A DNA stretch of 44,605 nucleotides from a virus (taxonomy: Duplodnaviria > Heunggongvirae > Uroviricota > Caudoviricetes). The stretch is taken from the IMG/VR virus record IMGVR_UViG_2547132255_000004. One strand, given 5' to 3'. Below are positions 1,144 through 44,024 of this stretch, one piece after another. The notes below the pieces were generated by a model. It was given only the letters and a program-made list of their open reading frames with translations. It had not been told where the DNA came from and did not search any database. The position numbers and the translations under genes were made by a program. The first letter of the stretch is position 1. Every line of letters begins with the position of its first letter.

Positions 1144-1369
1144 CAGCGATTATCCGTTGGAGTTTTGGGTTTGCGTTTATTGGGAGTTGCGGTTCTGCAA
1201 GCGTTCCTACAAAACGGGAATTTCGGTCAATCATCCAGTAGCGACCAACTTTTATAGCGGGTGGGGCCATCATTTTCCCTTGCGCGTATTTTTTCAGAAC
1301 TCGCTCACTTGGTGCTAAGTCCCCAAATTCTTCTTTAGCCCAGTCCTGTAAAGTGATTAGTCGAGACAT
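1133..1369 (-). CDS. xis: Excisionase (Xis-like)
   Basis: 78-aa ORF overlapping int start; N-terminus (LITLQDW...PPAIKVGRYW) resembles the lambda Xis winged-helix region; position immediately upstream of int. Confidence 0.75.
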   Translation of the reverse strand: MSRLITLQDWAKEEFGDLAPSERVLKKYAQGKMMAPPAIKVGRYWMIDRNSRFVGTLAEPQLPINANPKLQRIIADGC

Positions 1370-1508
1370 TTGTCCTCCTCTTAGCTACTGAGGGAGTTTG
1401 TGACCGATATATCTGACATGATATTAAGCTCATGGCAGGTACATCTCTTGACTGGTCATAGAGATAAATTTAATGCTGAGAAATGCAGTATTGAATTTAT
1501 CAATTTTT

Positions 1509-1748
1509 CTATTTCCTGCGTATGGCACGTAACTTCTTAATGTGTTCTGCTGTATCGATCTCTTCGGCTATCCGATCTGCATCAGCTTTATTCACAGGTT
1601 CAAAGTCATGATTAAAGCGGAACATGCTGGCGATACATGTTCTGCCTTTTTGGATGTAGTGAACTTTGTTGTGGGTAGAACGCAGGATTTTGCAGGGAGT
1701 GCCGTGGTGGTCGACGTACCAGGTGTTAGGAAAAATGATTCTGAACAT
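1509..1748 (-). CDS. Hypothetical protein (79 aa)
   Basis: ORF in the xis-exo accessory region, same orientation as the neighbouring early-left genes; no recognisable motif. Confidence 0.45.
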   Translation of the reverse strand: MFRIIFPNTWYVDHHGTPCKILRSTHNKVHYIQKGRTCIASMFRFNHDFEPVNKADADRIAEEIDTAEHIKKLRAIRRK

Positions 1749-1795
1749 TTTTACACCTCAGTTGGACGATGTTGAAATTTGCTGCTTTGAGGCCA

Positions 1796-2014
1796 TTACA
1801 ATCCCCATTGTTTGTTCTTAAGTTCGATCTCCTCCTGGCAACTTGCACAAGTCCGACAACCCTGAACGGCCAGGCGTCTTCGCTCATCTATGGGATCGCC
1901 ACACTCACAACAATGAGTGGCAGATATAGCCTGGTGGTTCAGGCGGCGCATTTTTATTGCTGTGTTGCGCTGTAATTCTTCAATTTCTGATGCTGAATCA
2001 ATGATGTCTGCCAT
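1796..2014 (-). CDS. TraR/DksA-family C4-type zinc-finger protein
   Basis: 72-aa ORF with CxxC...(17 aa)...CxxC spacing (CCECGDPIDERRRLAVQGCRTCASC) typical of TraR/DksA-like zinc fingers found in prophages. Confidence 0.7.
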   Translation of the reverse strand: MADIIDSASEIEELQRNTAIKMRRLNHQAISATHCCECGDPIDERRRLAVQGCRTCASCQEEIELKNKQWGL

Positions 2015-2112
2015 CTTCCATTAATCCCTGAATTGTTGGTTAATACGCTTGAGGGTGAATGCGAATAATAGAAAAGGAGCCTGTAGCTCCCTGATGATTT
2101 TGCTTTTCATGT

Positions 2113-2331
2113 TCACCGTTCCTTAAAAACGCCGTTTAACATGCCGATCGCTAGGCTTAAATGAGTCGGTGTGAATCCCATCAGCGTTACCGTTTCGCGG
2201 TGCTTCTTCAGTACGCTACGGCAAATGTCATCGACGTTTTTATCCGGAAACTGCTGTCTGGCTTTTTTGATTTCACAATTAGCCTGACGGGCAATGCTGC
2301 GAAGGGCGTTATTATGTTCTATTGTCATATT
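2113..2331 (-). CDS. Hypothetical protein (about 72 aa, internal ATG of a 117-aa ORF)
   Basis: ORF 2113..2466; the internal Met (MTIEHNN...) gives a gene that starts just after the stop of the upstream 250-aa gene; no recognisable motif. Confidence 0.4.
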   Translation of the reverse strand, partial: NMTIEHNNALRSIARQANCEIKKARQQFPDKNVDDICRSVLKKHRETVTLMGFTPTHLSLAIGMLNGVFKER

Positions 2332-2335
2332 GGCC

Positions 2336-3088
2336 TCACACTTCGAATGCCAACTGAGGGGTAAAGACGTCCCGTTCAGCGTTGTAATTAAGTGAACTGG
2401 CACTGTTGAATGATTCAATGCGTTCCACAAGAACTTGCGTACGGGTTTCTTTACTTGCGGGAGCATATGGCGAACCTACCCAGGATTTGTCGATGCCTAT
2501 ATTTCTTGCGACGTTCGTGCTGTCTGCAGACGAAAGCGGTACATGAGTAAAAATGTCTTTATTTAACATCCGTAACCCATGAATCTTGGTGATTGGGTAG
2601 CCGTACTGATCTACAACATGACGTATAAGATCGCGTAGTTTAGCCCGACACGCTCTCGGTCGTTTTGCATCGTATTCCCCCATCGAGCCGATGCAGACGC
2701 GGGGAAACTCATGGCACAGACGAATAAATCGCTCATCTGGTTCGTTCATGTGCCACACCGGAGCACCAATAAATTTACCGTGAGGCCATGCCGCAATCAG
2801 GGCGTCATTCTCTTCACTGGTTCCGCCGATAACATCCGGGATAACCGCGAATGAGAAACGAGGGTGATTACCCCAGCGTTCAACAAATCTGTAATATTCA
2901 TTCCAGTCTACGGCCTTGTTTTTTGTCCAGAATGTGAATGCACCATTATCAAGAGCAAATGATTGGGTGACTTCGGAAGCCAGATCAATCTGAGCTGGAT
3001 TAGCAAAACTGATGAATGCGTGTCTGCCTTTCCAGGCTTTCAACGCACAGGTATCGGGAGTTATTGGACCACCGTGAAAATGAATCAT
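2336..3088 (-). CDS. Hypothetical protein (250 aa)
   Basis: Long ORF in the operon with exo; translationally coupled to the small ORF upstream; function not recognisable by eye. Confidence 0.6.
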   Translation of the reverse strand: MIHFHGGPITPDTCALKAWKGRHAFISFANPAQIDLASEVTQSFALDNGAFTFWTKNKAVDWNEYYRFVERWGNHPRFSFAVIPDVIGGTSEENDALIAAWPHGKFIGAPVWHMNEPDERFIRLCHEFPRVCIGSMGEYDAKRPRACRAKLRDLIRHVVDQYGYPITKIHGLRMLNKDIFTHVPLSSADSTNVARNIGIDKSWVGSPYAPASKETRTQVLVERIESFNSASSLNYNAERDVFTPQLAFEV

Positions 3089-3243
3089 ACACTCTCCCGT
3101 TTATTATTTATCTCCTCAGCCAGTCGCTGGGCTTTCAGCGGATTTCGGATAACAGAAGGCCCGGGAAATACCCAGCCTCGCTTTGTAACGGAGTAGACGA
3201 AAGTGATCGCACCTACCCGGATATTATCGTGAGGATGCTTCAT
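3085..3243 (-). CDS. Small hypothetical protein (about 52 aa) immediately upstream of exo
   Basis: Manual translation ([26 protein letters not shown]...); stop overlaps the start of the 250-aa gene and start overlaps the exo stop; below the ORF-track size cutoff; coordinates approximate. Confidence 0.4.
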
Positions 3244-3916
3244 CGCCATTGCTCCCCAAATACAAAACCAATTTCAGCCAGTGCCTCGTCCATTTTTTCG
3301 ATGAACTCCGGCACCATCTCGTCAAAACTCGCCATGTACTTTTCATCCCGCTCAACCACGACATAATGCAGTCCTTCACGCTTCATACGCGGGTCATAGT
3401 TGGCAAAGTACCAGGCATCTTTTCGCGTCACCCACATGCTGTACTGCACCTGGGCCATGTAAGCTGACTTTATGGCCTCGAAACCACCGAGCCGGAACTT
3501 CATGAAATCCCGGGAGGTAAACGGGCATTTCAGTTCAAGGCCGTTGCCGTCACTGCATAAACCATCTGGAGAGCAGGCGGTACGCATACTTTCGTCGCGA
3601 TAGATGATCGGTGATTCAGTAACATTCACGCCGGAAGTGAACTCAAACAGGGCTCTGGCGTCGTTCTCGTACTGTTTTCCCCAGGCCAGCGCTTTAGCGT
3701 TAACTTCCGGAGCCACACCGGTGCAAACCTCAGCAAGCAGGGTGTGGAAGTAGGACATTTTCATGTCAGGCCACTTTTTTCCGGAGCGGGGTTTTGCTAT
3801 TACGTTATGAACTTCTGAAGCTGTGATGACGCCGAGCCGTAATTTGTGCCACGCATCATCCCCCTGTTCGACAGCTCTCACGTCGATCCCGGTACGCTGC
3901 AGGATAATGTCCGGTG

Positions 3917-3920
<4 letters not shown>
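3240..3920 (-). CDS. exo: Lambda exonuclease (Red alpha)
   Basis: 226-aa protein recognised as near-identical to lambda Exo ([40 protein letters not shown]...GFVFGEQWR). Confidence 0.95.
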
Positions 3921-6661
<2,741 letters not shown>

Positions 6662-6666
6662 CCGTT

Positions 6667-6963
6667 TTATACCTCTGAATCAATATCAACATGGTGGTGA
6701 GCAATGGTTTCAACCATGTACCGGATGTGTTCTGCCATGCGCTCCTGAAACTCAACATCGTCATCAAACGCACGGGTAATGGCTTTTTTGCTGGCCCCGT
6801 GGCGTTGCAAATGATCGATGCATAGCGATTCAAACAGGTGCTGGGGCAGGCCTTTTTCCATGTCGTCTGCCAGTTCTGCCTCTTTCTCTTCACGGGCGAT
6901 CTGCTGGTAGTGACGCGCCCAGCTCTGAGCCTCAAGACGATCCTGAATGTAATAAGCGTTCAT
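6667..6963 (-). CDS. gam: Gam (host RecBCD inhibitor), 98-aa form
   Basis: [60 protein letters not shown]...HVDIDSEV recognised as near-identical to lambda Gam. Confidence 0.95.
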
Positions 6964-7038
6964 GGCTGAACTCCTGAAAATGGCTGTGAAACTATTGCCC
7001 GGGAAATGCCAGGCTGATTAGGAAAACAGGAAAGGGGG

Positions 7039-7245
7039 TTAGTGATTCAGGCCGTTGCCGCGTCCGTCGAGAAAAATTTCCACGAGCAAGTCACGGGTAT
7101 AAGTGCGCTCGATGCCGCGATGAAGATAAAGCCGTCCGCGTAGATTAGCTGATGCAGTCCAGGTACCATCTTTGTGTTTGACCAGCATTCCTGGCATGAC
7201 CGCACCGCGATTAACGGTCTGCGTTCCGTAATGTTGATGAACCAT
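7039..7245 (-). CDS. Small early-left protein (68 aa) in the kil/cIII position; identity uncertain
   Basis: Internal ATG (MVHQHYGTQTVNRGAVMPGMLVKHKDGTW...) preceded by a good RBS (GGCAGGAG, 6 nt spacer) inside the 136-aa ORF 7039..7449; sits immediately downstream of the pL-side region and upstream of gam. Confidence 0.45.
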   Translation of the reverse strand: MVHQHYGTQTVNRGAVMPGMLVKHKDGTWTASANLRGRLYLHRGIERTYTRDLLVEIFLDGRGNGLNH

Positions 7246-7494
7246 AAAAACTCCTGCCCGTAAGCTGGGCTGCTGAACATATAGAGACTTCTGCGCGTAT
7301 TCAGGCGGTGGATGGCCGCCGGTTGTCATAACTAAGCCGCCTCGTTGAAGCGACTGAGGTATGAAGTGTTGAGTTGATTTCAGCTGGTCACACCGACGTT
7401 CACGCGTCCGCTTCACCCCTCGCACTCCCCGGAGCCTGCTGAAATTCAAGCTGCGGATCTAAGCGGTCATCGCAACGGTGAATCAGGTGATTGC

Positions 7495-7566
7495 CGTATC
7501 GTTGTGTTGTTGCGACATGGTGATAATAGCTATTGCTATTGATGATATCAATACTTATTGCTATTG
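7495..7566 (-). promoter_or_regulatory. Putative OL/pL-like operator-promoter region
   Basis: Repeated TTGCTATTG motifs flanking a near-palindrome ATTGATGATATCAAT; the same motif recurs in the cI-cro intergenic region; lies just downstream of the terminator that ends the cI operon, as pL does in lambda. Confidence 0.35.
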
Positions 7567-8658
7567 CTAGATGTGTTTTGATATTAAATGTTTGATAGCA
7601 AAAAGAATTAATTTTGTGACTTGCATCGCATAGCGATAACTGAAGCGGGGTTGTGGTGGTTTTTTGAACGGTGTGTGTGATGAGGGGAGGCAAAAGAAAA
7701 CCCGGCACGGTGGCCGGGTAGCATCACTATTCGATTTTTTAACCATGTAGTTACGTCGTGATGTTCCTAATCTTTCATTGTGAATCTCAGAAACGCTTAC
7801 TACGAGCGATATTCGTTCACCAACTTTATATTTACTTTGAATTTCTCCTAACATATCAATCGGATAAGAAGCCTTTATTTTTCCAAGCTCGCTTGCAATC
7901 TCCAATTTCCCGTACATGGATAAAATAGCAAGTTCGCCTGATATATGCTCATCCGGTAGCTGAATGACCTTCGTTAAAGCTAAGCGAGCATTCAGTTTTT
8001 TTATATCTTCTGAAGAAATCGACACTTGTCTGGTACCATCACTTAAAGGTCCAATCCAAGTAAGATCAAAGTTAAGACTATATTTTTCGCACTCATTTAT
8101 GATGTTTTTTAGGTTAGCTGTTGATTGCGAACCAATTTCGGCAATTTTAGCTGTGAATGTTTCTTCATCAATGGATGAGAGTAGTGCAAAAATCTCCTTA
8201 ACAGCATGACTGGATACTGTTTCGATGAGCTCGCAAGAACCAGTAGAAAAAGTAACACCTAACTTCGTCGAACCTGGACGCAAGTCTGCCAATCTCATGT
8301 CTAATGATTTTTTAACATCAATCGGCACACGACTAGAATCTTTCCCAGATCCAAATCGGTAAACTGCTTTCTGTACAAGGGATGCGAGATTACCTGAAAT
8401 TACAGATAGAATATCTAACGGAATAGACCCGAAATCGACCAAAACACCTTTTAATCTCAACTCCATGAAATCACGTAAAGGATGTTGGTTATCGATTGCA
8501 CGTTGTCTCTCTCGGAGATCGCTCAGATGGGAGTCAAGTGATCTAAATATAATGTCATCAGCAAATGATCTCCCCTTATTTTGAGCAAGCAGATCCACAT
8601 CGCGTTGAATGAACGCAATTCGCTCCTTGAGGGAGTTGAATGTTTTTTCTTCGCTCAT
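7567..8658 (-). CDS. Hypothetical 363-aa protein, second gene of the cI-downstream operon; C-terminal about 55 codons are probably read-through
   Basis: Start overlaps the stop of the upstream 157-aa gene (ATGA coupling); coiled-coil-like, charged sequence; the 3' end of the ORF runs through a terminator hairpin and the operator-like repeats with low-complexity translation. Confidence 0.6.
   Translation of the reverse strand: MSEEKTFNSLKERIAFIQRDVDLLAQNKGRSFADDIIFRSLDSHLSDLRERQRAIDNQHPLRDFMELRLKGVLVDFGSIPLDILSVISGNLASLVQKAVYRFGSGKDSSRVPIDVKKSLDMRLADLRPGSTKLGVTFSTGSCELIETVSSHAVKEIFALLSSIDEETFTAKIAEIGSQSTANLKNIINECEKYSLNFDLTWIGPLSDGTRQVSISSEDIKKLNARLALTKVIQLPDEHISGELAILSMYGKLEIASELGKIKASYPIDMLGEIQSKYKVGERISLVVSVSEIHNERLGTSRRNYMVKKSNSDATRPPCRVFFCLPSSHTPFKKPPQPRFSYRYAMQVTKLILFAIKHLISKHI
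7691..7718 (-). terminator. Rho-independent terminator (minus strand) at the end of the cI-downstream operon
   Basis: Stem CCCGGC/GCCGGG with 6-nt loop, followed on the minus strand by TTTTCTTTTG. Confidence 0.5.
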
Positions 8659-9128
8659 AACATTACCCTCACGAGGCCTTTAGGATTCTCCTTCCGATCA
8701 AAACCAAACCACCCTCTCCAGTAACTTCGCCTTTCACTATAATCGATTTCTGGATGATTTTCAGGCAGCAAAAGAACGTCAATGCTGTAGTTTTCTTTAA
8801 TAAAATCTCTATTTAACAATGAGCTAACCAATGGCATCAGCGTGTTTGGCAAAGAGTTTAGGGCCAAATAATCGACGACCACGAGTATATCTATGTCATC
8901 AGGTTCAGGTTTCTCTGTAGTGAATGAACCATCGATCCACACTTCAGAGAAACATAGACACTGCTGATTAACAAGTTTAAATTGCTCAATAAGCTGTATA
9001 AAATTACAGTATAGCATACTTCTTCTAACGGATTTTGGGAAGGTGTCGACACAAAGAGACTTGATGCCATCACTATCCATATCATGAAATCCTGCTGTAA
9101 GAAGAGGTGGGAAGCTAGGCTTTTCCAT
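8655..9128 (-). CDS. Minimal nucleotidyltransferase-like protein (157 aa), first gene after cI
   Basis: Motif WIDGSFTTEKPEPDDIDILVVVD fits the Pol-beta-superfamily signature hG[GS]-x9-13-DhDh; gene starts about 80 bp downstream of the cI stop on the same strand. Confidence 0.6.
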   Translation of the reverse strand: MEKPSFPPLLTAGFHDMDSDGIKSLCVDTFPKSVRRSMLYCNFIQLIEQFKLVNQQCLCFSEVWIDGSFTTEKPEPDDIDILVVVDYLALNSLPNTLMPLVSSLLNRDFIKENYSIDVLLLPENHPEIDYSERRSYWRGWFGFDRKENPKGLVRVML

Positions 9129-9209
9129 CCTAAGTCCTTGTTTATGCCATATAGTGTTCTATTTAATATTCTTGAAAAGAGTGTGCCTTAAAAAGCTACA
9201 GGCTAATTA

Positions 9210-9902
9210 TTAACCATGCTTCCTGTACGTCTGCGGCATGCTCCCAATAACCTTACCGAAGATGAACACCCGGTTCATCTCGTCTTTCTCGATCGGGTCC
9301 CACGGTGAGTAGCTCTTGTTATCAGAGATAACCAGTAGCTTATCCTTCATCATTTGCAGGCGCTTTACATGGGCTGTGTCGTCGTACAGAAACGCATAGA
9401 TACCATCACCGTCGAAAGATTTAACTGTGATATCAACGAACAGCAGATCACCTGGTTCGATCGTTCCTGACATGCTGTCACCACGCACGTTAATGATGCG
9501 GATATTTTCCGCCTTCCTGCCATCGAACATGTGACGAGCATCGTCAAACGAGTACTCAACCGAGCGTAGAACTTCTACAAACTCACGGTTGATTACACCC
9601 GGCCCGGCACTGACTTCTATATCAAGAACGTCAATTTTGAAGTATTTGGAATGGCTGACAGCAGGCTTCCCTGATTGTTGACCGTCATTTCTCATCGGGC
9701 CTATGCCTGATGAGAGCCATTCTGTTCGAACACCCAATGCATTAGCTATTTCAACAATTTTTGTTGAGCCGCGCGCGTTGCCGCTTGTCAGTCTCCAGAT
9801 TGTGGGTTGAGCTACGCCAGACGCCTTTGCAAGAGCGCCTTGAGACATTCCAGATTGTTCCATCGCTAGGTTTAAGCGATCAGCAAGAGTTTCTTTTTTC
9901 AT
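9210..9902 (-). CDS. cI: CI-type prophage repressor (HTH + S24 LexA-like peptidase domain)
   Basis: N-terminal HTH (MSQGALAKASGVAQPTIWRL); C-terminal autopeptidase motifs (GDSM serine, downstream VKRL lysine); divergent from the cro-like gene; start set at the internal ATG (MKKETL) because the ORF-track start at 9938 is a TTG. Confidence 0.85.
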   Translation of the reverse strand: MKKETLADRLNLAMEQSGMSQGALAKASGVAQPTIWRLTSGNARGSTKIVEIANALGVRTEWLSSGIGPMRNDGQQSGKPAVSHSKYFKIDVLDIEVSAGPGVINREFVEVLRSVEYSFDDARHMFDGRKAENIRIINVRGDSMSGTIEPGDLLFVDITVKSFDGDGIYAFLYDDTAHVKRLQMMKDKLLVISDNKSYSPWDPIEKDEMNRVFIFGKVIGSMPQTYRKHG

Positions 9903-10006
9903 AAGTTTTAATTTATACGCTTGCGTATTGATGGTCAAAACACGTTTTGCTATTGCTTGAGTTAATACGCATTGCTATTATTCATTCATTGCAATACTAA
10001 TAGGAA
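9903..10006. promoter_or_regulatory. Putative OR operator / pR-pRM region between cI and cro
   Basis: Divergent cI/cro intergenic region containing palindrome ATACGCTTGCGTAT (about 9915-9928) and TTGCTATTG-type motifs shared with the putative OL. Confidence 0.4.
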
Positions 10007-10012
10007 TTGATA

Positions 10013-10240
10013 ATGACAAATCAAACCATTCAACTCGCAATCAGTATTACAGGTAGTCAAAAACGACTGGCAGATCTCTGCGGTGTAGCCCAACCCACAG
10101 TTTGGCGTTGGCTACACGGTGGCGGAATTGATGCCCGCTATGTAATGAAAATTGTCTCAGCCACTGGTGGAAAGATTAAACCAGCAGATATTCGTCCCGA
10201 CCTCGCACCATTGTTTAACGCGAGTAATTCTGCCGCCTAA
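10013..10240 (+). CDS. cro: Cro-like HTH regulator
   Basis: Small HTH protein (LADLCGVAQPTVWRWLHGG) divergent from cI; ATG at about 10013 has RBS AGGA 7 nt upstream (the ORF track begins at a TTG at 10007). Confidence 0.7.
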   Translation: MTNQTIQLAISITGSQKRLADLCGVAQPTVWRWLHGGGIDARYVMKIVSATGGKIKPADIRPDLAPLFNASNSAA

Positions 10241-10264
10241 ACTGCGGCGTTAACTGATAAGGCA

Positions 10265-10810
10265 ATGACTATGCAACCACTTACATACCAACAGACTAGC
10301 GGATTTAGCCCGACTGCGGTGATAAATCGTTCTCAAACAAAACAGGCGCCAGGCCACGAAAAAATCCGTGATGCCGTTCGCGCCTGGTCGGCTGCAGATA
10401 ATCAGGATGTTGTTGCCGCACTCATTGTGAATGAGTATCGGGAGCAGGGCGGCGGCACCATCGATTTCCCTGATGATGTCAGCCGTGCACGCCAGAAGCT
10501 GTTCCGCTTCCTCGATAACAAATTCGATTCTGAAAAATACCGAAATAACGTGCGTGAACTGACCCCGGCAATTCTGGCGGTACTACCGCTGGAATATCGC
10601 GGCCACCTGGTTGAGCAGGATAGCTTCATGGCTCGGCTGGCTGAAATGGAAAAGGAACTCAGTGAGGCAAAACAGGCTGTCATTCTCAACGCACCACGCC
10701 ACCAGAAACTGAAGGAGATGAGTGAAGGCATTGTGTCGATGTTTCGTGTGGACCCGGATTTGGCTGGTCCACTGATGGCGATGGTCACCACCATGCTGGG
10801 GGCAATATGA
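10265..10810 (+). CDS. Hypothetical 181-aa protein in the cII position (possible CII-like regulator)
   Basis: Position immediately downstream of cro and upstream of O; no similarity to lambda CII seen by eye; family assignment not possible without a search. Confidence 0.4.
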   Translation: MTMQPLTYQQTSGFSPTAVINRSQTKQAPGHEKIRDAVRAWSAADNQDVVAALIVNEYREQGGGTIDFPDDVSRARQKLFRFLDNKFDSEKYRNNVRELTPAILAVLPLEYRGHLVEQDSFMARLAEMEKELSEAKQAVILNAPRHQKLKEMSEGIVSMFRVDPDLAGPLMAMVTTMLGAI

Positions 10811-10896
10811 CAGGTTCGGAAATGGCGAAAGCCGGTCTGCGCGAACAGAACCGACTTTCAGGTGCAAATCGTAACGCACTCATTGCGGGAGGAATT

Positions 10897-11825
10897 ATGG
10901 CAAACACTGCTGAGATATTCAATTTTCCAGTGCCGGATGTGGCACAAAAGGAGCCGCGCGTGGCAGATCTCGATGATGGTTATACGCGCATTGCTAATGA
11001 GTTGCTGGAAGCTGTGATGCTGGCCGGATTAACACAGCACCAGCTTCTGGTCTTCCTGGCTGTCATGCGCAAAACATATGGCTTTAATAAAAAATGGATT
11101 GGGTGAGCAACGAGCAACTTTCCGAGTTAACCGGGATATTGCCGCACAAGTGTTCTGCTGCAAAAAGTGTTCTGGTAAAGCGTGGGATTTTGATTCAGAG
11201 CGGGCGGAATATAGGCATTAATAATGTGGTCAGTGAATGGTCAACATTACCCGAATCAGGTAAGAAAAATAAAGTTTACCTGAAAGAGGTAAATTTACCT
11301 GAATCAGGTAAGAAAAGTTTACCCAAATCAGGTAAAGACGTTTACCCGAATCAGGTAAACACAAAAGACAAACTAACAAAAGACAATATAAAACCTTTTT
11401 CGTCCGAGAATTCTGTCGAATCCTCTGACCAGCCAGAAAACGATCTTCCTGTGGTGAAACCGGATGCTGCAATTCAGAGCGGCAGCAAGTGGGGGACAGC
11501 AGAAGACCTGACCGCCGCAGAGTGGATGTTTGACATGGTGAAGACCATCGCGCCATCAGCCAGAAAACCGAATTTTGCAGGGTGGGCTAACGATATCCGC
11601 CTGATGCGAGAACGTGACGGACGTAACCACCGCGACATGTGTGTACTGTTCCGCTGGGCATGCCAGGACAACTTCTGGTCCGGTAACGTGCTGAGTCCGG
11701 CCAAACTCCGCGACAAGTGGACCCAGCTCGAAATCAACCGAAACAAGCAACAGGCTGGCGTGACAGCCGGCAAACCAAAACTCGACCTGACGAACACTGA
11801 CTGGATTTACGGGGTGGAGCTATGA
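10897..11825 (+). pseudogene. O: Replication initiator O (lambda O-like), split by a frameshift at an A6 run near 11089-11094
   Basis: N-terminal part (MANTAEIFNF...VADLDDGYTRIANELLEA...LAVMRKTYGFNKK) matches the lambda O N-terminus in ORF 10807..11106; the rest (SNEQLSELTGILPHKC...) continues in ORF 11094..11825 in another frame; iterons lie inside. Confidence 0.75.
11247..11360 (+). repeat. Origin-of-replication iterons (four 18-19-bp direct repeats) inside O, followed by an AT-rich stretch
   Basis: TTACCCGAATCAGGTAAG / TTACCTGAATCAGGTAAG / TTACCCAAATCAGGTAAAG / TTACCCGAATCAGGTAAAC at about 11247, 11295, 11319, 11342; each has internal dyad TTACC...GGTAA; A-rich region 11360-11405; same layout as lambda ori. 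Confidence 0.75.
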
Positions 11826-12523
11826 AAAACATCGCCGCACAGATGGTTAACTTTGACCGTGAGCAGATGCGTCGGATCGCCAACAACATGCCGGAACAGT
11901 ACGACGAAAAGCCGCAGGTACAACAGGTAGCGCAGATCATCAATGGTGTGTTCAGCCAGTTACTGGCAACTTTCCCAGCGAGCCTGGCTAACCGGGACCA
12001 GAACGAACTGAACGAAATCCGCCGCCAGTGGGTGCTGGCTTTCCGGGAAAACGGGATCACCACAATGGAACAGGTTAACGCAGGAATGCGCGTAGCCCGT
12101 CGGCAGAATCGACCATTCCTGCCATCACCCGGGCAGTTTGTTGCCTGGTGCCGGGAAGAAGCATCCGTTACCGCCGGGCTGCCAAACGCCAGCGAGCTGG
12201 TTGATATGGTTTACGAGTATTGCCGGAAGCGTGGCCTGTATCCGGACGCAGAGTCTTATCCATGGAAATCGAACGCGCACTACTGGCTGGTTACCAACCT
12301 GTACCAGAACATGCGAGCCAATGCGCTGACTGACGCGGAATTACGGCGCAAGGCTGCTGATGAACTGACCTGTATGACAGCGCGAATTAACCGTGGTGAG
12401 GCTATACCTGAACCAGTAAAACAACTTCCTGTCATGGGCGGTAGACCTCTAAATCGTGCACAGGCTCTGGCGAAGATCGCAGAAATTAAAGCTAAGTTCG
12501 GACTGAAAGGAGCCAGTGTATGA
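11822..12523 (+). CDS. P: Replication protein P (DnaB helicase loader)
   Basis: 233-aa protein recognised as near-identical to lambda P (MKNIAAQMVNFDREQMRRIANNMPEQYDEKPQVQQ...KFGLKGASV). Confidence 0.95.
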   Translation: MKNIAAQMVNFDREQMRRIANNMPEQYDEKPQVQQVAQIINGVFSQLLATFPASLANRDQNELNEIRRQWVLAFRENGITTMEQVNAGMRVARRQNRPFLPSPGQFVAWCREEASVTAGLPNASELVDMVYEYCRKRGLYPDAESYPWKSNAHYWLVTNLYQNMRANALTDAELRRKAADELTCMTARINRGEAIPEPVKQLPVMGGRPLNRAQALAKIAEIKAKFGLKGASV

Positions 12524-12813
12524 CGGGAAAAGAAGCAATTATTCATTACCTGGGAACGCATAAGAGCTTCTGTGTGCAGGACGTTGCTGCGGTAACAGGC
12601 GCAACAGTAACCAGCATCAATCAGGTAGCAGCCAAAATGGCACGGGCCAGAATTCTAGTTATTGATGGCAAGGTCTGGCGAACGGTGTATTACCGGTTCG
12701 CTACCAGGGAGGAGCGGGAAGGAAAGGTGAGCACGAACCTGATTTTCAAGGAGTGTCGCCAGAGTGCCGTGATGAAACGGGTATTGATGTTTTGGGGGAG
12801 GGTAGGGGTATGA
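12520..12813 (+). CDS. ren: Ren protein
   Basis: 97-aa protein MTGKEAIIHYLGTH...VWRTVYYRFATREEREGK... matches lambda Ren; start overlaps the P stop. Confidence 0.9.
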   Translation: MTGKEAIIHYLGTHKSFCVQDVAAVTGATVTSINQVAAKMARARILVIDGKVWRTVYYRFATREEREGKVSTNLIFKECRQSAVMKRVLMFWGRVGV

Positions 12814-13100
12814 GCGAAACGTTATGAGTGTGTGGGTATTCGTGCCATTGCGATGTGGTAGAGAGTGCTGAGGGCGTCATGGTTGTGTTGCGAAGACTAC
12901 GTTGCACTTGAGCAGGATCTTGCAGAATTTGAGCGCGAGTTCCGTGTTGCTGATGCGACTATACCCTCGATGTAGAGGAACTTAATTAGCTGATTGTAAT
13001 TCAATATGCCTACTAAGACCGGTTGGGTATGAACTAGTAAAGGCTGCAAAATCCTATAGAGTGTTAACGCAACCAAAAACGTTAAGCACGGAGAAAAAAC

Positions 13101-13853
13101 ATGGATCCTAAATTACTGTATGCCACGTTTAAACGAAATGACGCACCAGCTTGGCGCTGCCCGAACTGTATGAATGAAACACTGGAGATTGTCGCTGATA
13201 GTTTTGTAGAAACTGATTCAAGCGCAACAACTCAGTTTAGAGATGAAGTATGGTTTGATGAGGAAATGTCGGGAGGAGTATTCAGTTGCGTGCTGCGCTG
13301 TACCCGCCAAGCCTGCCAGGAGAAGGTTGCTTTGTCTGGGCAGGTTGTTGTTGTAGAATGCTTCAATGACGAAATGACGGAGCGTTGGTATGTTTCTGGT
13401 TTCCGTCCTAAGTATTTCTATCCACCACTTCCTCTATTCCTGTTTCCTGAAAAGTGCCCTGAAGATATAGCTGATCTCTTGGCGGAAGTATCAGCTCTGA
13501 TCCCCTCGCACCCAGCTTCAGCGGTGAACACCATGAGAACCATACTGGAGATGATGCTTGATAGTCTTGATGTACCAAGAGAGAAAACAGTTAAAGGCAA
13601 GATAATACGTCTTTCTACGCATGAAAGAATCACAAATTATTCAGATAAACTGGGACCAAATAAAGATGCATTCATGGCGTTAAAGTGGTTGGGGAATCAC
13701 GGCAGTCATGGAGGGATTAAAGTCACAAGGTCCTCTATTAATGATGCCTGCATTCTCATTGGTCATTTGATTGACTTCTTATTCTTAGAAAGCCCGGATG
13801 TAACTATTCATATTGAACGGATAAACAACGTGTATGCACCCAAAAAGGAGTAA
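13101..13853 (+). CDS. Hypothetical 250-aa protein with N-terminal zinc-ribbon-like cysteine cluster
   Basis: CPNC...(about 38 aa)...CVLRCTRQAC cysteine pattern; RBS GGAG upstream; C-terminal region contains LKWLGNHGSHGG; sits in the cargo position between ren and ninB. Confidence 0.6.
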   Translation: MDPKLLYATFKRNDAPAWRCPNCMNETLEIVADSFVETDSSATTQFRDEVWFDEEMSGGVFSCVLRCTRQACQEKVALSGQVVVVECFNDEMTERWYVSGFRPKYFYPPLPLFLFPEKCPEDIADLLAEVSALIPSHPASAVNTMRTILEMMLDSLDVPREKTVKGKIIRLSTHERITNYSDKLGPNKDAFMALKWLGNHGSHGGIKVTRSSINDACILIGHLIDFLFLESPDVTIHIERINNVYAPKKE

Positions 13854-14108
13854 AACGTAACGCCATGTCGAAGCGGAATATTGCCGCTAAAACACAAGAA
13901 GAGCGCGAGAAGGTTAACGTTGACCTTGCTGTCTCCTGAGTGGCCTACAAAGAGCGCCTTAATATACCGGTTATTGCCGAAGCGGTGATGCGTGAGCAGC
14001 CTGAGCATTTGCGGGGCTATTTTTTGGGGCGGCCACGACATTACCGCGAGCAGACATCGCTCTGCCCAAGGCATCCGCCCCTCGACATCTTAAGCAGGAA
14101 GGTGAAAA

Positions 14109-14591
14109 ATGATAAGTGCAGAAGGACTGCAGCGGTTACTTAATTTATCGGAGCCTCCATCTGATGAACTGATTGATGTTTATCTTCAATTCAGCATGAT
14201 TTTTCCTAGGGTCGAGCAAAGTTTTTTTGGTGGCTTTGCTAAGGGGGAAGACAGTTTAAATTATGCTCGAACGTTACTTGACGCCGGGATAAAGGTGCCC
14301 AACGAACTTTTTCACGATTTTAAGCAGAGATACATTTTGAACGGGGATGCGCAGGAAAGACTTGACGCCCTCTGTTTCGGTCGAGAGAGAGATAAGCGGG
14401 GAATAGTTAATGGGCTTCAAAATGACGCAGCAACAGATCTAAACACCATGTCTACAGTATTAAAGATAGTTATAAGGATAAGAAATAACCTTTTCCACGG
14501 GAATAAAGACGCTTATCTTTTTGTTGATTCTCAAGAGCAAGCGCAACTATTGAGATGGTGCGTGAGATTTCTCCAAGGATTATTAAATTAA
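14109..14591 (+). CDS. Hypothetical 160-aa protein with C-terminal Rx4H (HEPN-like) motif
   Basis: [14 protein letters not shown] near the C-terminus fits the HEPN R-x4-6-H signature; second gene of the ren-ninB cargo. Confidence 0.55.
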
Positions 14592-14780
14592 TCTGCCTTT
14601 GATTTTCACTAATCAACTCGCCATAATCATGTCATCGGAGCCTGAACAACTCCGGTGACTTCTGCGCTAAACGGGGACGTTTATGCGCACATACAATCCA
14701 AACTCTCTTCTCCCTTCACAGATGCAGAAATGCACCTGCGATTTTTTGCATCCAGCGTCTGACCTCTGTGGAGGTGAAGC

Positions 14781-15236
14781 GTGAACCTACCACAAGATGG
14801 CATCAAACTGCATCGCGGTAACTTCACCGCTATCGGTCAGCAGATCCAGCCTTATCTGGAGGACGGCAAATGCTTTCGCATGGTGCTTAAACCGTGGCGC
14901 GAGAGACGCAGTCTTTCCCAGAATGCACTTAGCCACATGTGGTACAGCGAAATCAGTGAATACCTCATAAGCAGGGGGAAATCGTTCGCTACTGCAGCAT
15001 GGGTAAAAGATGCTCTCAAACACACATACCTCGGTTATGAAACCAAAGACCTGGTTGATGTCGTAACCGGTGAAATCACCACTATTCAGTCGTTACGCCA
15101 TACCTCCGATCTTGATACCGGAGAGATGTATGTCTTCCTGTGTAAGGTTGAAGCCTGGGCGATGAATATTGGCTGCCACCTGACTATTCCGCCGAGCTGC
15201 GAGTTCCAGCTGCTGCGCGACAAGCAGGAGGCGTAA
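14781..15236 (+). CDS. ninB: NinB-family recombination protein
   Basis: 151-aa protein with RSLSQN...W motif resembling lambda NinB (orf146); GTG start with RBS GGAGG. Confidence 0.75.
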
Positions 15237-15407
15237 TGGCTACACCGCTTATTCGTGTCATGAACGGGCACATTTACAGAGTACCAAATCGTCGTAAGCG
15301 TAAACCTGAGCTGAAGCCTTCCGAAATACCAACACTGCTCGGATATACCGCCAGCCTGGTTGATAAAAAATGGTTGCGACTGGCAGCAAGGAGGAATCAT
15401 GGCTGAT
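15237..15407 (+). CDS. ninE: NinE-like small protein (about 56 aa)
   Basis: Manual translation [28 protein letters not shown]...[16 protein letters not shown] resembles lambda NinE (KWLRxxARK tail); below the ORF-track size cutoff; coordinates approximate. Confidence 0.55.
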
Positions 15408-15689
15408 TTGAGAAAAGCAGCGCGTGGTCGGGAATGCCAGGTAAGAATCCCTGGCGTATGTAATGGCAACCCTGAAACGTCTGTACTGGCACATATCCGG
15501 CTGACTGGATTGTGCGGCACCGGTACCAAACCGCCAGACCTGATTGCCACCATTGCATGTTCTGCCTGCCACGACGAAATCGACCGCCGCACACATTTTG
15601 TCGATGCTGCATATGCAAAAGAATGCGCGCTGGAAGGTATGGCGAGAACACAGGTTATCTGGCTGAAAGAGGGGGTTATTAAGGCGTGA
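15399..15689 (+). CDS. ybcO: YbcO-like cysteine-rich putative nuclease (about 96 aa)
   Basis: ORF 15360..15689; probable start at the internal Met ([23 protein letters not shown]...) overlapping the ninE end; conserved cysteines; position between ninE and rusA as in DLP12. Confidence 0.6.
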
Positions 15690-16048
15690 ATACCTACAGC
15701 ATCACATTACCCTGGCCTCCGAGCAATAATCGCTATTACCGCCATAATCGCGGGCGCACGCACGTCAGCGCAGAGGGGCAGGCATACCGCGATAACGTCG
15801 CCCGAATCATTAAAAACGCAATGCTGGATATCGGCCTGGCTATGCCTGTGAAAATCCGCATTGAGTGCCACATGCCGGATCGCCGTCGCCGTGACCTGGA
15901 TAATCTGCAAAAAGCCGCTTTTGACGCACTCACTAAAGCAGGTTTCTGGCTGGATGATGCTCAGGTCGTTGATTACCGCGTTGTGAAGATGCCTGTTACC
16001 AAAGGTGGGAGGCTGGAACTGACCATCACCGAAATGGGGAATGAATGA
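15686..16048 (+). CDS. rusA: Holliday junction resolvase RusA
   Basis: 120-aa protein [37 protein letters not shown]...[13 protein letters not shown]... recognised as RusA. Confidence 0.92.
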
Positions 16049-16185
16049 TGTTTGAGTTTTATATGGCAGAACTTCTTCGCCGCCGCTGGGTGCGCCTGCG
16101 CTTATATCGTTTTCCTGGTTCTGTTTTGACCGATTACCGAATACTGAAGAATTACGCCAAAACCCTGACAGGAGCAGGAGTATGA
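16045..16185 (+). CDS. ylcG: Small protein (about 46 aa), YlcG-like by position
   Basis: Manual [49 protein letters not shown] with ATGA overlap of the rusA stop; below the size cutoff; coordinates approximate. Confidence 0.4.
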
Positions 16186-16255
16186 AGTCAGAGATAACAA
16201 TCAACTAATACTGTTTTGTTGATTTTTGCTTGTAATTGGCGTTCTGGTCTGATTT

Positions 16256-16654
16256 TTGTGGAGTAAGTTGATGCGTGATATTCAGATGGTTCTTGAGCGT
16301 TGGGGAGCGTGGGCGGCTAATAATCATGAAGATGTGACCTGGTCGTCCGTTGCCGCCGGTTTTAAGGGATTAATTCCTTCAAAAGTAAAATCTCGCCCGC
16401 AATGTTGTGACGATGACGCGATGATCATTTGCGGGTGCATGGCCCGTCTGAAAAAGAACAACAGCGATTTACACGATTTATTAGTAGATTATTATGTATG
16501 TGGTATGACATTCATGTCACTGGCAAGTAAGCATTGCTGCTCGGATGGTTATATCGGGAAAAGGTTACAGAAGGCTGAGGGCATAATTGAAGGGATGTTA
16601 ATGGCATTAGATATCCGGTTAGATATGGATATCGTTGCTAATAATTCTAATTGA
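16256..16654 (+). CDS. Q: Late-gene antiterminator Q (phage 82/DLP12 QuuD-type)
   Basis: Protein ...[24 protein letters not shown]...[17 protein letters not shown]... resembles the 82-type Q family; the ORF-track start is a TTG, the probable real start is the ATG at about 16271. Confidence 0.85.
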
Positions 16655-16686
16655 TATGCAATTGTTTACTAAAAGTTATTAAAAAT

Positions 16687-16842: not shown

Positions 16843-17925
16843 TTAGAACTGATAAACCAGACCTACAGCGACGATGTCGTCGGTATCAATACCAGCTGTT
16901 TTGGTAAACTTACTATCGTCAATTAAGTTGATTTTGTAATCAACAAAAGTGGACATGTTTTTATTAAAGTAGTAAGTAGCACCGACATCGACATACTTGA
17001 CTAAGTCTCGGTCACCATGAACACCAAGGTCTTTACCTTTTGACTGAAGGTAAGCAACAGATGGTCGCAGACCGAAGTCAAACTGATATTGTGCTACTGC
17101 TTCAAAGTTTTGTGCTTTGTTTGCAATATGGTTATTACCAAAAACGGTCATATTCTGAGTTTCAGAATATGTGGTAGCCAGATAGATATTGTTCGCATCA
17201 TATTTCAGGCCTGCAGCCCATACTTCCGCATTTTTGCCGGAGGCATTGAATTTGCTCTTACCATAGGCGACCTGACCGTCAGTGCGATCTGATTTAGCAT
17301 AGGTTGCACCCACGCCGAATCCTTCATACTCATAAGTAGTGGAGAAACCGAAACCATCACCATTGGCTTCAGTTACGTCAGTGCGGTCATTTTTACCCTG
17401 ATACTGAGCAGCAAAGTTCAGGCCATCGACCAGACCAAAGAAGTCGTTGTTACGATAAGTTGCAACACCAGTAGTGCGACCAGTCATGAACACATCTGTT
17501 TGGGTCCAGGTATCACCACCGAATTCTGGCAGGACGTCAGTCCACGCACCGATGTCGTATGCTACACCGTAGTTACGGCCGTAATCGATTGAGCCGTAAT
17601 CACCAAATTTCAGGCCTGCAAATGCAAGACGGGTTTTGTCTTTGGAAGAACCTTGAGATTCAGCACGGTTGCCTTTGAATTCATATTCCCACTGACCGAA
17701 ACCAGTCAGTTGATCGTTGATTTGGGTTTCACCTTTGAAGCCAAGACGGGCATAAGTAGTATCACCATCATCTGCATCATTAGAGGAGAAGTAGTGCTTG
17801 GCATTAACTTTCCCGTATAGATCCAGCTTGTTACTGTCTTTATTATAAATTTCAGCTGCCTGAGCAGACATCGCCATCAGTACTGATGCAGCTACAGCAG
17901 AAATTGCCACTGTTAATTTTTTCAT
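16843..17925 (-). CDS. nmpC: Outer-membrane general porin, OmpC/OmpF family (NmpC/Lc-type prophage porin)
   Basis: 360-aa protein with signal peptide ([23 protein letters not shown]), porin motifs and C-terminal ...VAVGLVYQF; located between Q and the holin as nmpC is in DLP12. Confidence 0.92.
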
Positions 17926-18352
17926 TGTACGCCCTTTTTTTTGAACTATTATTAAAAAATGATGTCACTGCGCGATAAATATTCATCTAATCAATGCGAT
18001 TATTTCAAGATTTAAGTTTTAGTTTCTCATTTAATTTGTGAAGTAGATCTCTATTTTTATCTGAACCTTTTCTATCTAATCCTATTCATGGCTCTTGTTT
18101 GAACGAAAATAAATCTATTAGCTAATTTATATTAATGGCACTTATTTATAAGCGCTCTATAATTCTTTAGCTTAATTTAAACAAACTAAAAATAACATCG
18201 GAAATTATTCATTGGTTATTTGTTGAAGTTTTCTTATGTATTTGTGGTGGTGTTTTGAACACTCGGTGGCATTCTCACAAATATCATTTAGTAGTTTACG
18301 TACGTAAAAAATTGGTTATGCTGTTAAGAGTGGTTACTTCGTCACACAGCTT

Positions 18353-18386
18353 AAACCCGCCGTCGAGCGGGTTTTTCCATTTTTTG
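18353..18386 (+). terminator. Hairpin plus T-run on the plus strand about 130 nt upstream of the holin gene
   Basis: AAACCCGC-cgtcga-GCGGGTTT followed by TTCCATTTTTTG. Confidence 0.4.
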
Positions 18387-18514
18387 AGTCTCGATATTAG
18401 CTGATAACCCAATACCTGAGTTATTCACTGACTCCGAATCTGTTACGTTTCTGCCTTTATTGCGATACGTAGTATCCCCTTAATTTACACCCGCTTTGTC
18501 TGCGAGGTGGGGTT

Positions 18515-18730
18515 ATGAAATCCATGGATAAGTTAACAACGGGTGTCGCCTATGGTACCTCAGCAGGTAGTGCCGGGTACTGGTTTTTACAGTTGCTCGA
18601 TAAAGTCACGCCCTCACAGTGGGCGGCAATAGGTGTGCTGGGTAGCCTGGTATTTGGCCTGCTGACGTACCTGACAAACCTTTATTTCAAGATTAAAGAA
18701 GATAAGCGTAAGGCTGCACGGGGAGAGTAA
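18515..18730 (+). CDS. S: Holin, phage 21 S21 / EssD-type (class II)
   Basis: 71-aa protein [26 protein letters not shown]...[33 protein letters not shown] matches S21-family holins. Confidence 0.9.
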
Positions 18731-18734
18731 TTCA

Positions 18735-19049
18735 ATGACTCAAAACTATGAACTGATTGTGAAAGGGATCCGCAATTTTGAGAATAAAGTTACGGTAACT
18801 TTAGCGTTACGGGACAAAAAACGCTTTGACGGTGAAATTTTTGACCTGGACATCTCGCTGGACCGTGTTGAAGGTGCCGCGCTGGAGTTTTATGAGGCTG
18901 CAGCCAGAAGGAGCATCAGACAGGTCTTCCTGGATGTTGCTGCCGGGTTATGTGAAGGGGACGAGCTGTTGCCAGAAACGCGCCCCTGTTCAGAGGCGCG
19001 GTATACCATAAAAATTAACAGTTCAGATAACTCGATTACTGGTTGTTAG
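18735..19049 (+). CDS. Hypothetical 104-aa protein between holin and endolysin (YdfR-like by position and size)
   Basis: ORF starting 5 nt after the holin stop; the Qin prophage carries a similar-sized gene (ydfR) between holin and lysozyme; assignment is by position only. Confidence 0.45.
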   Translation: MTQNYELIVKGIRNFENKVTVTLALRDKKRFDGEIFDLDISLDRVEGAALEFYEAAARRSIRQVFLDVAAGLCEGDELLPETRPCSEARYTIKINSSDNSITGC

Positions 19050-19418
19050 CCTTTTGTTTCAGTTGGTTTTCCAATATCTTTCATTGGTAGCAGCATTTCC
19101 AGATTGCTTTTGATATATGGATTATTTACATGTTCATTTAATTGATGAATGATTCCATTTTTTCATTCTGGTCCAATACGGAAAATATTACTGTAATCAT
19201 ATATTTAAGAGCTTCAATTTCTTTTGCTGTTGATGCAGGAGATGAGCAGTCAGCTGTAATATTGATAAAAACTTCTTTTTGCATATCAAATCCTCAGATG
19301 GGGTAGCTCAGCCAGCATCCCCCATAATCCTTAACCAGAGCGCCAGTGTCCTACCACTGACGGGCTGAATGCTTAACATATCCAGGGTTCAGAAACCGAT
19401 AAATCCTGATAAATATCC

Positions 19419-19952
19419 ATGAACGTAAAAATCAGATACGGCCTGTCGGCTGCTGTTCTGGCGCTGATTGCCGCAGGCGCGTCTGCTCCTCAGATACTTG
19501 ACCAGTTTCTGGACGAAAAAGAGGGTAACCACACAAAGGCATACCGCGATGGTTCCGGCATATGGACCATTTGCCGGGGTGCCACGGTGGTGGATGGTAA
19601 ACCTGTTATTCCGGGCATGAAACTGTCGAAGGAAAAATGCGCCCAGGTTAACGCCATTGAGCGGGATAAGGCGCTGGCATGGGTGGAGCGTAATATAAAA
19701 GTTCCACTGACCGAGCCACAAAAAGCAGGTATCGCGTCATTTTGCCCCTATAACATTGGCCCCGGTAAGTGTTTCCCGTCGACGTTTTATAAGCGGCTTA
19801 ATGCCGGTGATCGTAAAGGTGCCTGTGAGTCGATTCGCTGGTGGATTAAGGACGGTGGGCGTGATTGCCGCACACGTTCAAATAACTGCTACGGACAGGT
19901 TATTCGTCGTGACCAGGAAAGCGCATTAGCCTGTTGGGGGATAGATCAGTGA
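19419..19952 (+). CDS. R: Endolysin, lysozyme family (RrrD-type, with N-terminal signal-arrest-release-like hydrophobic segment)
   Basis: 177-aa protein; N-terminal hydrophobic stretch ([16 protein letters not shown]) then E...D...T catalytic triad context ([22 protein letters not shown]); matches DLP12 RrrD from memory. Confidence 0.9.
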
Positions 19953-20410
19953 GAAGAGTTGCCGCGATTATCTCCGCTCTGGTTATCTGCATCATCGTCT
20001 GCCTGTCTTGGGCTGTTAATCATTACCGCGATAACGCGATTACCTACAAAGCCCAGCGCGACAAAAATGCCAGAGAACTGACGCTGGCGAACGCGGCAAT
20101 TACTGACATACAGATGCGTCAGCGTGATGTTGCTGCGCTCGATGCAAAATACACGAAGGAGTTAGCTGATGCGAAAGCTGAAAATGATGCTCTGCGTGAT
20201 GATGTTGCCGCTGGTCGTCGTCGGTTGCACATCAAAGCAGTCTGTCAGTCAGTGCGTGAAGCCACCACCGCCTCCGGCGTGGATAATGCAGCCTCCCCCC
20301 GACTGGCAGACACCGCTGAACGGGATTATTTCACCCTCAGAGAGAGGCTGATCACTATGCAAAAACAACTGGAAGGAACCCAGAAGTATATTAATGAGCA
20401 GTGCAGATAG
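19934..20410 (+). CDS. Rz: Spanin inner-membrane subunit Rz
   Basis: Protein ...[49 protein letters not shown]...YINEQCR recognised as near-identical to lambda Rz. Confidence 0.92.
20169..20351 (+). CDS. Rz1: Spanin outer-membrane lipoprotein subunit Rz1, embedded in Rz in the +1 frame
   Basis: 60-aa ORF with lipoprotein signal (MLPLVVVGC) and proline-rich mature part ([18 protein letters not shown]), as for lambda Rz1. Confidence 0.85.
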
Positions 20411-20441
20411 AGCTGCCCATATCGATGGGCAACTCATGCAA

Positions 20442-20735
20442 TTATTGTGAGCAATACACACGCGCTTCCAGCGGAGTATAAATGCCTAAAGTAATAAAAC
20501 CGAGCAATCCATTTACGAATGTTTGCTGGGTTTCTGTTTTAACAACATTTTCTGCACCACCACAAATTTTTGCTGCATCGACAGTTTTCTTCTGCCCAAT
20601 TCCCGAAACGAAGAAATGATGGGTGATGGTTTCCTTTGGTGTTACTGCTGTAGGTTTGTTTCCAACAGTAAACGTCTGTTGAGCACATCCTGTAATAAGC
20701 ATTGCCAGAGCGGCAGAAAACAACATTTTTTTCAT
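20442..20735 (-). CDS. bor: Bor lipoprotein (serum-resistance outer-membrane lipoprotein)
   Basis: MKKMLFSAALAMLITGCAQQTFTVGNKPTAVTPKETITHHFFVSGIGQKKTVDAAKICGGAENVVKTETQQTFVNGLLGFITLGIYTPLEARVYCSQ recognised as lambda Bor; opposite strand to the lysis genes. Confidence 0.9.
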   Translation of the reverse strand: MKKMLFSAALAMLITGCAQQTFTVGNKPTAVTPKETITHHFFVSGIGQKKTVDAAKICGGAENVVKTETQQTFVNGLLGFITLGIYTPLEARVYCSQ

Positions 20736-21215
20736 CTTATTATCCTGCATTGTTAAAAACGGCAGAATCCTATGTGACAACAATTAAACGATAGTTAAAT
20801 GGATTGATGAAAATTAAAACTACACAGGTGGGCTCAGACTATTGGAGGAAGTTGGGGACACTCAGAATCCTGTGGAATGAAATAAACCGGTCTATCCGTC
20901 CATTACCCTTTTAGCTGCGCTGTATCGTCGCCGTATTCCCGCATTAACCATGACCGTAGCCCGACGGGGAATTCCTTCTGCGTGAGTGTGCGGGAATAAT
21001 TAAAAACGATGCACACCGGGTTTTTACCGCGTTAATGATTCGCGGGTTTATCCCGGTGCGATGGTGGAAGAAACAGGAAGCTGTATTACAGAAAGTGCTA
21101 CTACTGTATCCCGATGCGATGTATGTAATGTGAGTCAGATAATGGCACAGGATGTGGTGATGTGGCAGTCTGGAACACAGGATATATTGTCAGAATAAGA
21201 CCCGTAGGAATAAAA

Positions 21216-21542: not shown

Positions 21543-21664
21543 TGCTTCCAGATAGAGAGGGGCTGGAAGCAGGAGAAAAATGAAAGAGCCAGCGGTTATA
21601 TTTTTGTCATGGCTGACGAGGAATGATGGAAGAAGGCGTTGTATGCCACACAACGCCTCACTGT

Positions 21665-23040: not shown

Positions 23041-26721
<3,681 letters not shown>

Positions 26722-26741
<20 letters not shown>

Positions 26742-28053: not shown

Positions 28054-28062
28054 GAGGCAGTT

Positions 28063-41958: not shown

Positions 41959-44024
41959 GTGAATATGGCAGTAAAGATTTCAGGTGTACTGAAAGACGGC
42001 ACAGGAAAACCGGTACAGAACTGCACAATCCAGCTGAAAGCAAAACGTAACAGCACCACAGTTGTGGTGAACACGGTGGCCTCAGAAAATCCGGATGAAG
42101 CCGGACGTTACAGCATGGATGTTGAGTATGGCCAGTACAGCGTCGCCCTGCTGGTTGAAGGTTTTCCGCCTTCACATGCCGGGACCATCACCGTGTATGA
42201 GGATTCTAAGCCGGGGACATTGAATGATTTTCTGGGCGCTGCAACAGAAGATGATGTTTGTCCGGAGGCACTGTATCGTTTTGAAAAGATGGTGGAAGAG
42301 GCGGCACGCAACGCTGAAGCCGCCTCTCAGAGCGCAGCGGCAGCAAAGAAATCAGAAACAGCAGCGGCATCGTCCAGGAACGCGGCGAAAACATCAGAGA
42401 CGAATGCAGGTAACAGCGCGAAAGCGGCAGCTTCTTCAAAAACAGCCGCACAAAACGCAGCAACAGCGGCAGAACGTTCAGAGACAAATGCCCGTGCGTC
42501 AGAAGAAGCCTCCGCAGACAGTGAAGAGGCTTCCCGCCGTAATGCAGAGTCAGCCGCTGAAAATGCCGGAGTCGCCACCACAAAAGCGCGGGAGGCCGCA
42601 GCAGACGCAACAAAGGCCGGGCAGAAAAAGGATGAGGCTCTGTCGGCAGCGACACGAGCTGAAAAGGCGGCAGACCGCGCAGAAGCCGCAGCGGAAGTGA
42701 CTGCAGAGCCCTGTGCGAATATAGTGCCGCCGCTGCCTGATGTGTGGATACCGTTTAACGATTCACTGGATATGATTGCGGGTTTTTCTCCGGGCTATAA
42801 AAAAATAGCTATTGGTGACGATGTGGTTCAGGTCGCCAGTGATAAACAGGTTAATTTCAGTCGCGCATCAACGGCAACATATATCAACAAATCTGGCGAA
42901 CTGAAAACGGCGGAAATTAATGAGCCGCGATTTGAGTGTGATGGCCTGCTTATTGAGGGACAAAGAACGAACTACATGCTCAATTCGGAAAGTCCAGCCA
43001 GCTGGGGGAAGTCATCAAACATGGATGTGCCCGAAACCGGGACGGATAGTTTTGGTTTTACTTATGGAAAGTTTGTCTGCAACGATTCTCTGGTTGGGCA
43101 AACTTCGGCTATTAATATGGCATCAATTGCTGCAACAAAGTCAGTTGATGTCTCAGGCGATAACAAGTACGTGACAACCTCATGCCGTTTTAAAACAGAA
43201 CGACAGGTAAGGTTACGTATACGGTTTGATAAGTATGATGGTAGTGCAACAACTTTTCTTGGCGATGCGTACATTGATACGCAAACGCTTGAAATTAGTA
43301 TGACAGGTGGTGCTGCCGGCAGAATTACGGCACGAGTCAGGAAGGATAAGACCACGGGCTGGATTTTTGCAGAGGCAACGATTCAGGCAATTGATGGTGA
43401 GTTAAAAATAGGCTCTCAGATACAGTATTCTCCTGGGCAGGGTGGGGCAACAGTATCTGGTGACTATATTTATCTTGCCACCCCACAAGTAGAGAATGGG
43501 CCGTGTGTATCATCATTTATTATTTCAGGAGGCAGCGCAACGACAAGAGCCAGTGATTTGGTTAGTATCCCCACCAGAAATAATCTTTATAAGTTACCAT
43601 TTACTTTTTACTTGAGATTCATAAAAACTGGGATATTGCACCAAACGCCGCACCCCGCGTGTGGGATATAGCAGCAGCCAATACCGGGCAATCAGCAATT
43701 GCAGCAATCAACAGAGGTAGTGGTAAGTTATATATGAGTCTGTCAAACCCTTCAGGCTCGTATGTTAATAGCGCAGCGACAGATGTATTTGCAGAGAAAA
43801 CCACATTTGGATGTATTGCAAAAGCTGATGGTCACTTTCATGTGGTGACAAATGGTAAAGCGGTTAATGAAGTTTATTGTGAATATAATGGCGTGACCGC
43901 TGATAAAAATATCCGATTTGGAGGGCAGACGAATACTGGAGAACGACATCTGTTTGGCCATATTCGCAATTTCCGCATATGGCATAAAGAATTAAATGAC
44001 AGGCAATTAAAAGAGGTCGTATGA
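41959..44024 (+). pseudogene. stf: Side tail fibre gene stf, split into 570-aa and 121-aa ORFs by a frameshift at an A5 run (about 43623-43627)
   Basis: N-terminus MAVKISGVLKDGTGKPVQNCTIQLKAKRNSTTVVVNTV... plus Ala/Ser-rich repeat region matches the lambda Stf N-terminal part; protein-like translation continues in the +1 frame (NWDIAPNAAPRVWDIAAANTG...NFRIWHKELNDRQLKEVV) right after the A-run. Confidence 0.65.

Follow-up and report, generated by a model that had tools for sequence, protein, structure and literature searches.

The window, that is, the entire stretch of 44,605 nucleotides analyzed here (IMG/VR record IMGVR_UViG_2547132255_000004), contains a lambdoid prophage that adjoins icd and is also present in Escherichia coli NGF1, NC101 and related strains of the B2 group. 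Position 1 of the window is the exact end of the integrase gene, and the window as a whole resembles the output of a prophage predictor; in NGF1, sitABCD and a partial copy of icd come after the far end of the prophage. The positions that in phage lambda are taken by cro and cII (10007-10810) are occupied here by a gene for a YdaS-like HTH protein (10007..10240) and a gene for a protein containing a YdaT_toxin domain (10265..10810; PF06254), the latter annotated as cII in phage records. Accessory genes flank the immunity region at 7567-9128 (minus strand) and 13101-13853; between kil and cI, there is a DUF6932 gene (8655..9128) along with a gene for a 310-aa hypothetical protein, and a DUF4145 gene follows ren. 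These accessory genes might be putative defence or moron genes.

On the plus strand lies the gene for the replication initiator O, which in the window is split into two open reading frames (ORFs), 10807..11106 and 11094..11825, that occupy different frames and share 13 nt. The break coincides with a run of six adenines on the plus strand at 11089..11094, where the surrounding sequence is GGCTTTAATAAAAAATGGATTGGGTGA and the longer stretch reads ...TATGGCTTTAATAAAAAATGGATTGGGTGA... The 5' ORF encodes 99 aa, ends in ...RKTYGFNKKWIG* and accounts for the first half of the origin-binding domain, Phage_rep_O; the 3' ORF encodes 243 aa, begins with MDWVSNEQLSEL... and comprises the second half of this domain, the linker that contains the replication origin, and the C-terminal part of the protein. 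Both ORFs match the Pfam family PF04492 (Phage_rep_O), the first one at profile positions 1-46 and the second one at positions 47-95 of 95, so that the break divides the N-terminal domain near its midpoint. Thus, the original prediction, made from the letters alone, that O is frameshifted at the A6 run is borne out with respect to both the two frames and the position of the switch. In related genomes, the start annotated by PGAP is the equivalent of 10807, although the start that corresponds to that of lambda O is probably the ATG at 10897, which follows a GGAGG sequence at 10888-10892.

Apart from the continuity of the reading frame in the window, all examined features place this gene in the lambda O family, and it is an ordinary lambda-type replication initiator with nothing new about the gene itself. 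The repaired O protein, as encoded in NGF1, matches PF04492 at profile positions 1-95 with an E-value of 2.6e-35. Over all 1,019 bases, the split gene is 98% identical at the nucleotide level to the O genes of the Escherichia phages Perceval, 4A7, Lambda_4C10, 1W and 3W, which likewise encode a Phage_rep_O protein, the A run being one base shorter only in the window; in phage Perceval, the site of the run reads AAAAAAC, with Leu replacing Met, and the frame is continuous as well. The O genes of phages 434, SfI and VT1-Sakai share 93-96% identity with the 3' half of the gene, the value for gpO of phage 434 being 93% over query positions 543-1019. In lambda, the N-terminal domain of O binds iterons located inside its own coding sequence, and the C-terminal part recruits the complex of the helicase loader P with DnaB. 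Judging by this similarity, the O protein encoded here is expected to bind iterons via the N-terminal domain and to recruit P-DnaB via the C-terminal part. The replication origin is found within the gene, at 11247..11363, in the form of the palindromic iteron TTACCYGAATCAGGTAA repeated five times, compared to four copies in lambda, and an A-rich repeat (11361-11390) comes after the iterons; the record of phage 434 also annotates the ori iterons that are bound by gpO. The gene for P (11822..12523, plus strand) encodes a protein matching PF06992 (Phage_lambda_P), and its start overlaps the stop codon of O (ATGA).

To place the split gene among its closest relatives, the O region was searched against 5,426 finished E. 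coli genomes, none of which contains an exact match to the window. The best matches, in NGF1, NC101 and their relatives, are 99.9% identical and all span 1,020 bases, compared to 1,019 in the window. In NGF1, the only difference in the O region is A7 in place of A6, and the gene encodes a continuous 339-aa protein that reads ...GFNKKMDWVSNEQLSEL..., precisely the outcome that the original prediction had anticipated for one extra A. Among the 2,404 finished genomes that contain the 81-bp segment around the run, none has the A6 form. An exact-protein search gives a similar picture: the intact 339-aa O protein, the 686-aa Stf protein and a 79-aa protein encoded elsewhere in the prophage are each found on at least 1,000 contigs, whereas the 99-aa O fragment is found on two.

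The relationship with NGF1 extends to the whole prophage. Setting aside the 1,954-bp insertion sequence IS100, which is absent from bet in NGF1, the window and NGF1 are 99.97% identical over about 42.6 kb and share the gene order from int to stf. The complete tally of differences consists of six substitutions and five indels, and each of the five indels is a contraction by one base in the window that occurs in an A/T run. The frequency of these contractions rises steeply with the length of the run in the NGF1 region: four of the 11 runs of seven are affected, but only one of the 32 runs of six and none of the 120 runs of five. Four of the five contractions disrupt ORFs that are intact in NGF1. 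With regard to one of the substitutions, position 20300 is C in the window and T in NGF1, where the T creates a TGA codon; the gene for an Rz-like endopeptidase is intact in the window and is annotated in NGF1 as a pseudogene interrupted by an internal stop.

Besides the A run in O, four other runs are one base longer in NGF1. A T6 run at 7735..7740, which is T7 in NGF1, converts the 310-aa protein into a 363-aa product; this product, which requires T6, is represented by a UniParc entry only, with no match in the current NCBI assembly. An A6 run at 13094..13099, situated in the spacer that separates the ribosome-binding site of the DUF4145 gene from its ATG, is A7 in NGF1. A T6 run at 19158..19163 is T7 in NGF1, where it is part of the gene for the 79-aa protein that is broken in the window; the T6 form is found in one of 95 finished genomes. 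Finally, a T5 run at 43605..43609 splits the side tail fiber gene stf into ORFs of 568 and 121 aa, whereas NGF1 has T6 and a continuous ORF of 686 aa. None of 576 finished genomes has the T5 form; the 568-aa product matched no record in the exact-protein look-up, and the 121-aa product matched only Logan and ENA contigs of other samples. At the nucleotide level, the T5 form likewise recurs in a number of short contigs that Logan and ENA hold for other samples. The original prediction invoked the stf frameshift as consistent with a genuine inactivating mutation in O; this support falls away, given that the stf split is itself a T6 to T5 contraction unseen among those 576 finished genomes.

The IS100 insertion made it possible to trace the window to a particular strain. 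This element, a member of the IS21 family, is inserted in bet at 4398..6351 on the minus strand, carries istA (5243..6265) and istB (4464..5246), both on the minus strand, and is flanked by a 5-bp duplication, ATGAT. Records of the two Bet fragments created by the insertion exist solely for E. coli 9.1649 and the Logan assembly of the read set SRR066815; in the public assembly of E. coli 9.1649 (GCA_000194475.2), they are KKA61012.1 and KKA60994.1 from contig AEZY02000018.1. The insertion is thus a strain marker common to AEZY02 and SRR066815. A search with the junction of IS100 with bet gave full-length matches in ten finished genomes only, at 98% identity, with the element inserted into bet at an identical position; these genomes do not represent the same strain, and the element resides there in a different lambdoid prophage, located at ybhC, in which O is intact. 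This coincidence of insertion points in two prophages suggests either an insertion hot spot or spread of the interrupted bet by recombination between prophages.

Direct comparison of AEZY02000018.1 with positions 1-16658 of the window, a span that includes both IS100 junctions and the icd-adjacent position and ends ahead of the runs at 19158 and 43605, revealed no mismatches and exactly three gaps of one base each, at 7735-7740, 11089-11094 and 13094-13099. In each case, the AEZY02 run is one base longer, and this assembly accordingly has A7 at the second and third runs and T7 at the first, and encodes the continuous 339-aa O protein and the 310-aa protein. For the late region, the 117-aa head-tail protein is too common to place the AEZY02 runs by exact-protein match. 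The Logan contigs of SRR066815 match the window exactly over 1-4427, 6322-16682 and 17896-29284, with the sole exception of T7 at 7735; they agree with the window in having A6 both in O and at 13094, and T6 at 19158. Thus, three assemblies of one strain differ from each other in homopolymer length alone, and at 7735 the window is contradicted by both of the others. No paper that would give the sequencing platform of SRR066815 was found for the SRA run or for the accession numbers; one paper that names strain 9.1649 deals only with the leuX island.

Taken together, these observations lead us to conclude, with considerable though not complete confidence, that the frameshift in O is a one-base homopolymer sequencing error and most likely does not correspond to any real feature. 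The principal reason is that the run is A7, and O is intact, in a different public assembly of this strain; in addition, the indels relative to NGF1 are limited to A/T runs, always shorten the run and become far more frequent in longer runs, both other assemblies disagree with the window at 7735, and AEZY02, if wrong, would need three independent over-calls, each restoring the ancestral length. Under this scenario, the A7 run in O would have been under-called by one base, producing an apparent frameshift, and the window would represent an earlier or alternative assembly of 9.1649 built from data prone to shortening long A/T runs. We infer that this is a superseded version of the E. coli 9.1649 assembly, and the existence of the 363-aa product in UniParc combined with its absence from the current NCBI assembly fits a superseded annotated version. 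The pattern of the differences, confined to A/T runs, one-way, dependent on length and inconsistent between assemblies, is likewise characteristic of errors of the 454 and Ion Torrent type, and by this likeness of pattern the chemistry behind the window appears to have been flow-based and 454-like. The original prediction left the choice between an inactivating mutation and a homopolymer error open; the A7 run in AEZY02 and the restriction of all indels to A/T contractions tip the balance toward the error and away from the mutation.

The main competing explanation is that the A7 to A6 change is a genuine -1 slippage event, carried by the 9.1649 prophage or by a fraction of the sequenced culture, in which case O would be cut inside its origin-binding domain and the prophage would be unable to initiate its own replication. 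A run of seven adenines could plausibly act as a slippage hot spot, selection on prophage genes is presumably weak in a lysogen, and the Logan assembly of SRR066815, which comes from the same strain and has the same IS100 junction, also shows A6. The weight of this agreement depends on the reads: if they are Illumina reads independent of the window assembly, the sequenced culture would truly carry A6, but if they are flow-based and are the source of the window, a shared bias is to be expected. The same contraction also occurs in two unrelated read sets (SRR21091466 and ERR10497961), in each of which it is the sole difference from the finished genomes of the respective lineage (99.9% identity with one gap); these cases and the stf T5 contigs could reflect either recurrent slippage or the same kind of error. 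The prophage, furthermore, already carries a real insertion in bet, which the original prediction cited as consistent with the inactivation of O; the insertion is indeed confirmed by both AEZY02 and Logan but is uninformative about O. Weighing against a genuine mutation, besides the intact gene in AEZY02, the over-calls that it would have to contain and the disagreement at 7735, are the complete lack of the A6 form among the finished genomes with this segment and the proportion of five one-way contractions to six substitutions, which is far off the normal mutation spectrum. We therefore consider a real A6 in strain 9.1649 unlikely. A broader version of this idea, to which we assign a still lower probability, is that the A7 run is a recurrent slippage hot spot that would shut down replication of the prophage in some lysogens, with the A6 forms in 9.1649 and in the two unrelated read sets all being real and marking either early, repeated prophage decay or a reversible on/off switch.

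It is also conceivable that A6 is real but full-length O is still made by recoding, through slippage of the ribosome by -1 on AAA AAA or through transcriptional slippage that adds an A, such that the split would be regulatory. Slippage can occur at lysine codons rich in A and at runs of A, and this general tendency is what speaks for such a mechanism, in which the downstream frame would be reached by a -1 shift at AAA-AAA-T. However, the zero-frame codons are AAT AAA AAA TGG, with a T preceding the run, and there is no canonical X XXY YYZ heptamer in this frame. A run of six adenines is, moreover, short for efficient transcriptional slippage, and the split is not conserved, the A6 form being missing from all 2,404 finished genomes with this segment and the listed phage O genes being continuous over 1,020 bases. 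Recoding accordingly seems extremely improbable. Programmed frameshifting in O was rejected on the ground that the split arrangement is not conserved among relatives, and a functional two-piece O was rejected because the break falls midway in a single Pfam domain.

If, as we believe, the A run was under-called, the true O would be continuous, with 339 aa from the ATG at 10807 or 309 aa from the ATG at 10897, and the replication module of the prophage would be intact. The distinction matters for the interpretation of this element because the frameshift, if taken as real, would brand the prophage as replication-defective and, together with the stf split, as decaying. More generally, the window contains about five homopolymer under-calls, and no weight should be given to frameshifts that it shows in A/T runs of at least six bases. 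The sole lesion of the prophage that has been confirmed is the IS100 insertion in bet, a gene dispensable for the replication and growth of lambda; hence the prophage of E. coli 9.1649 may be largely intact and inducible.
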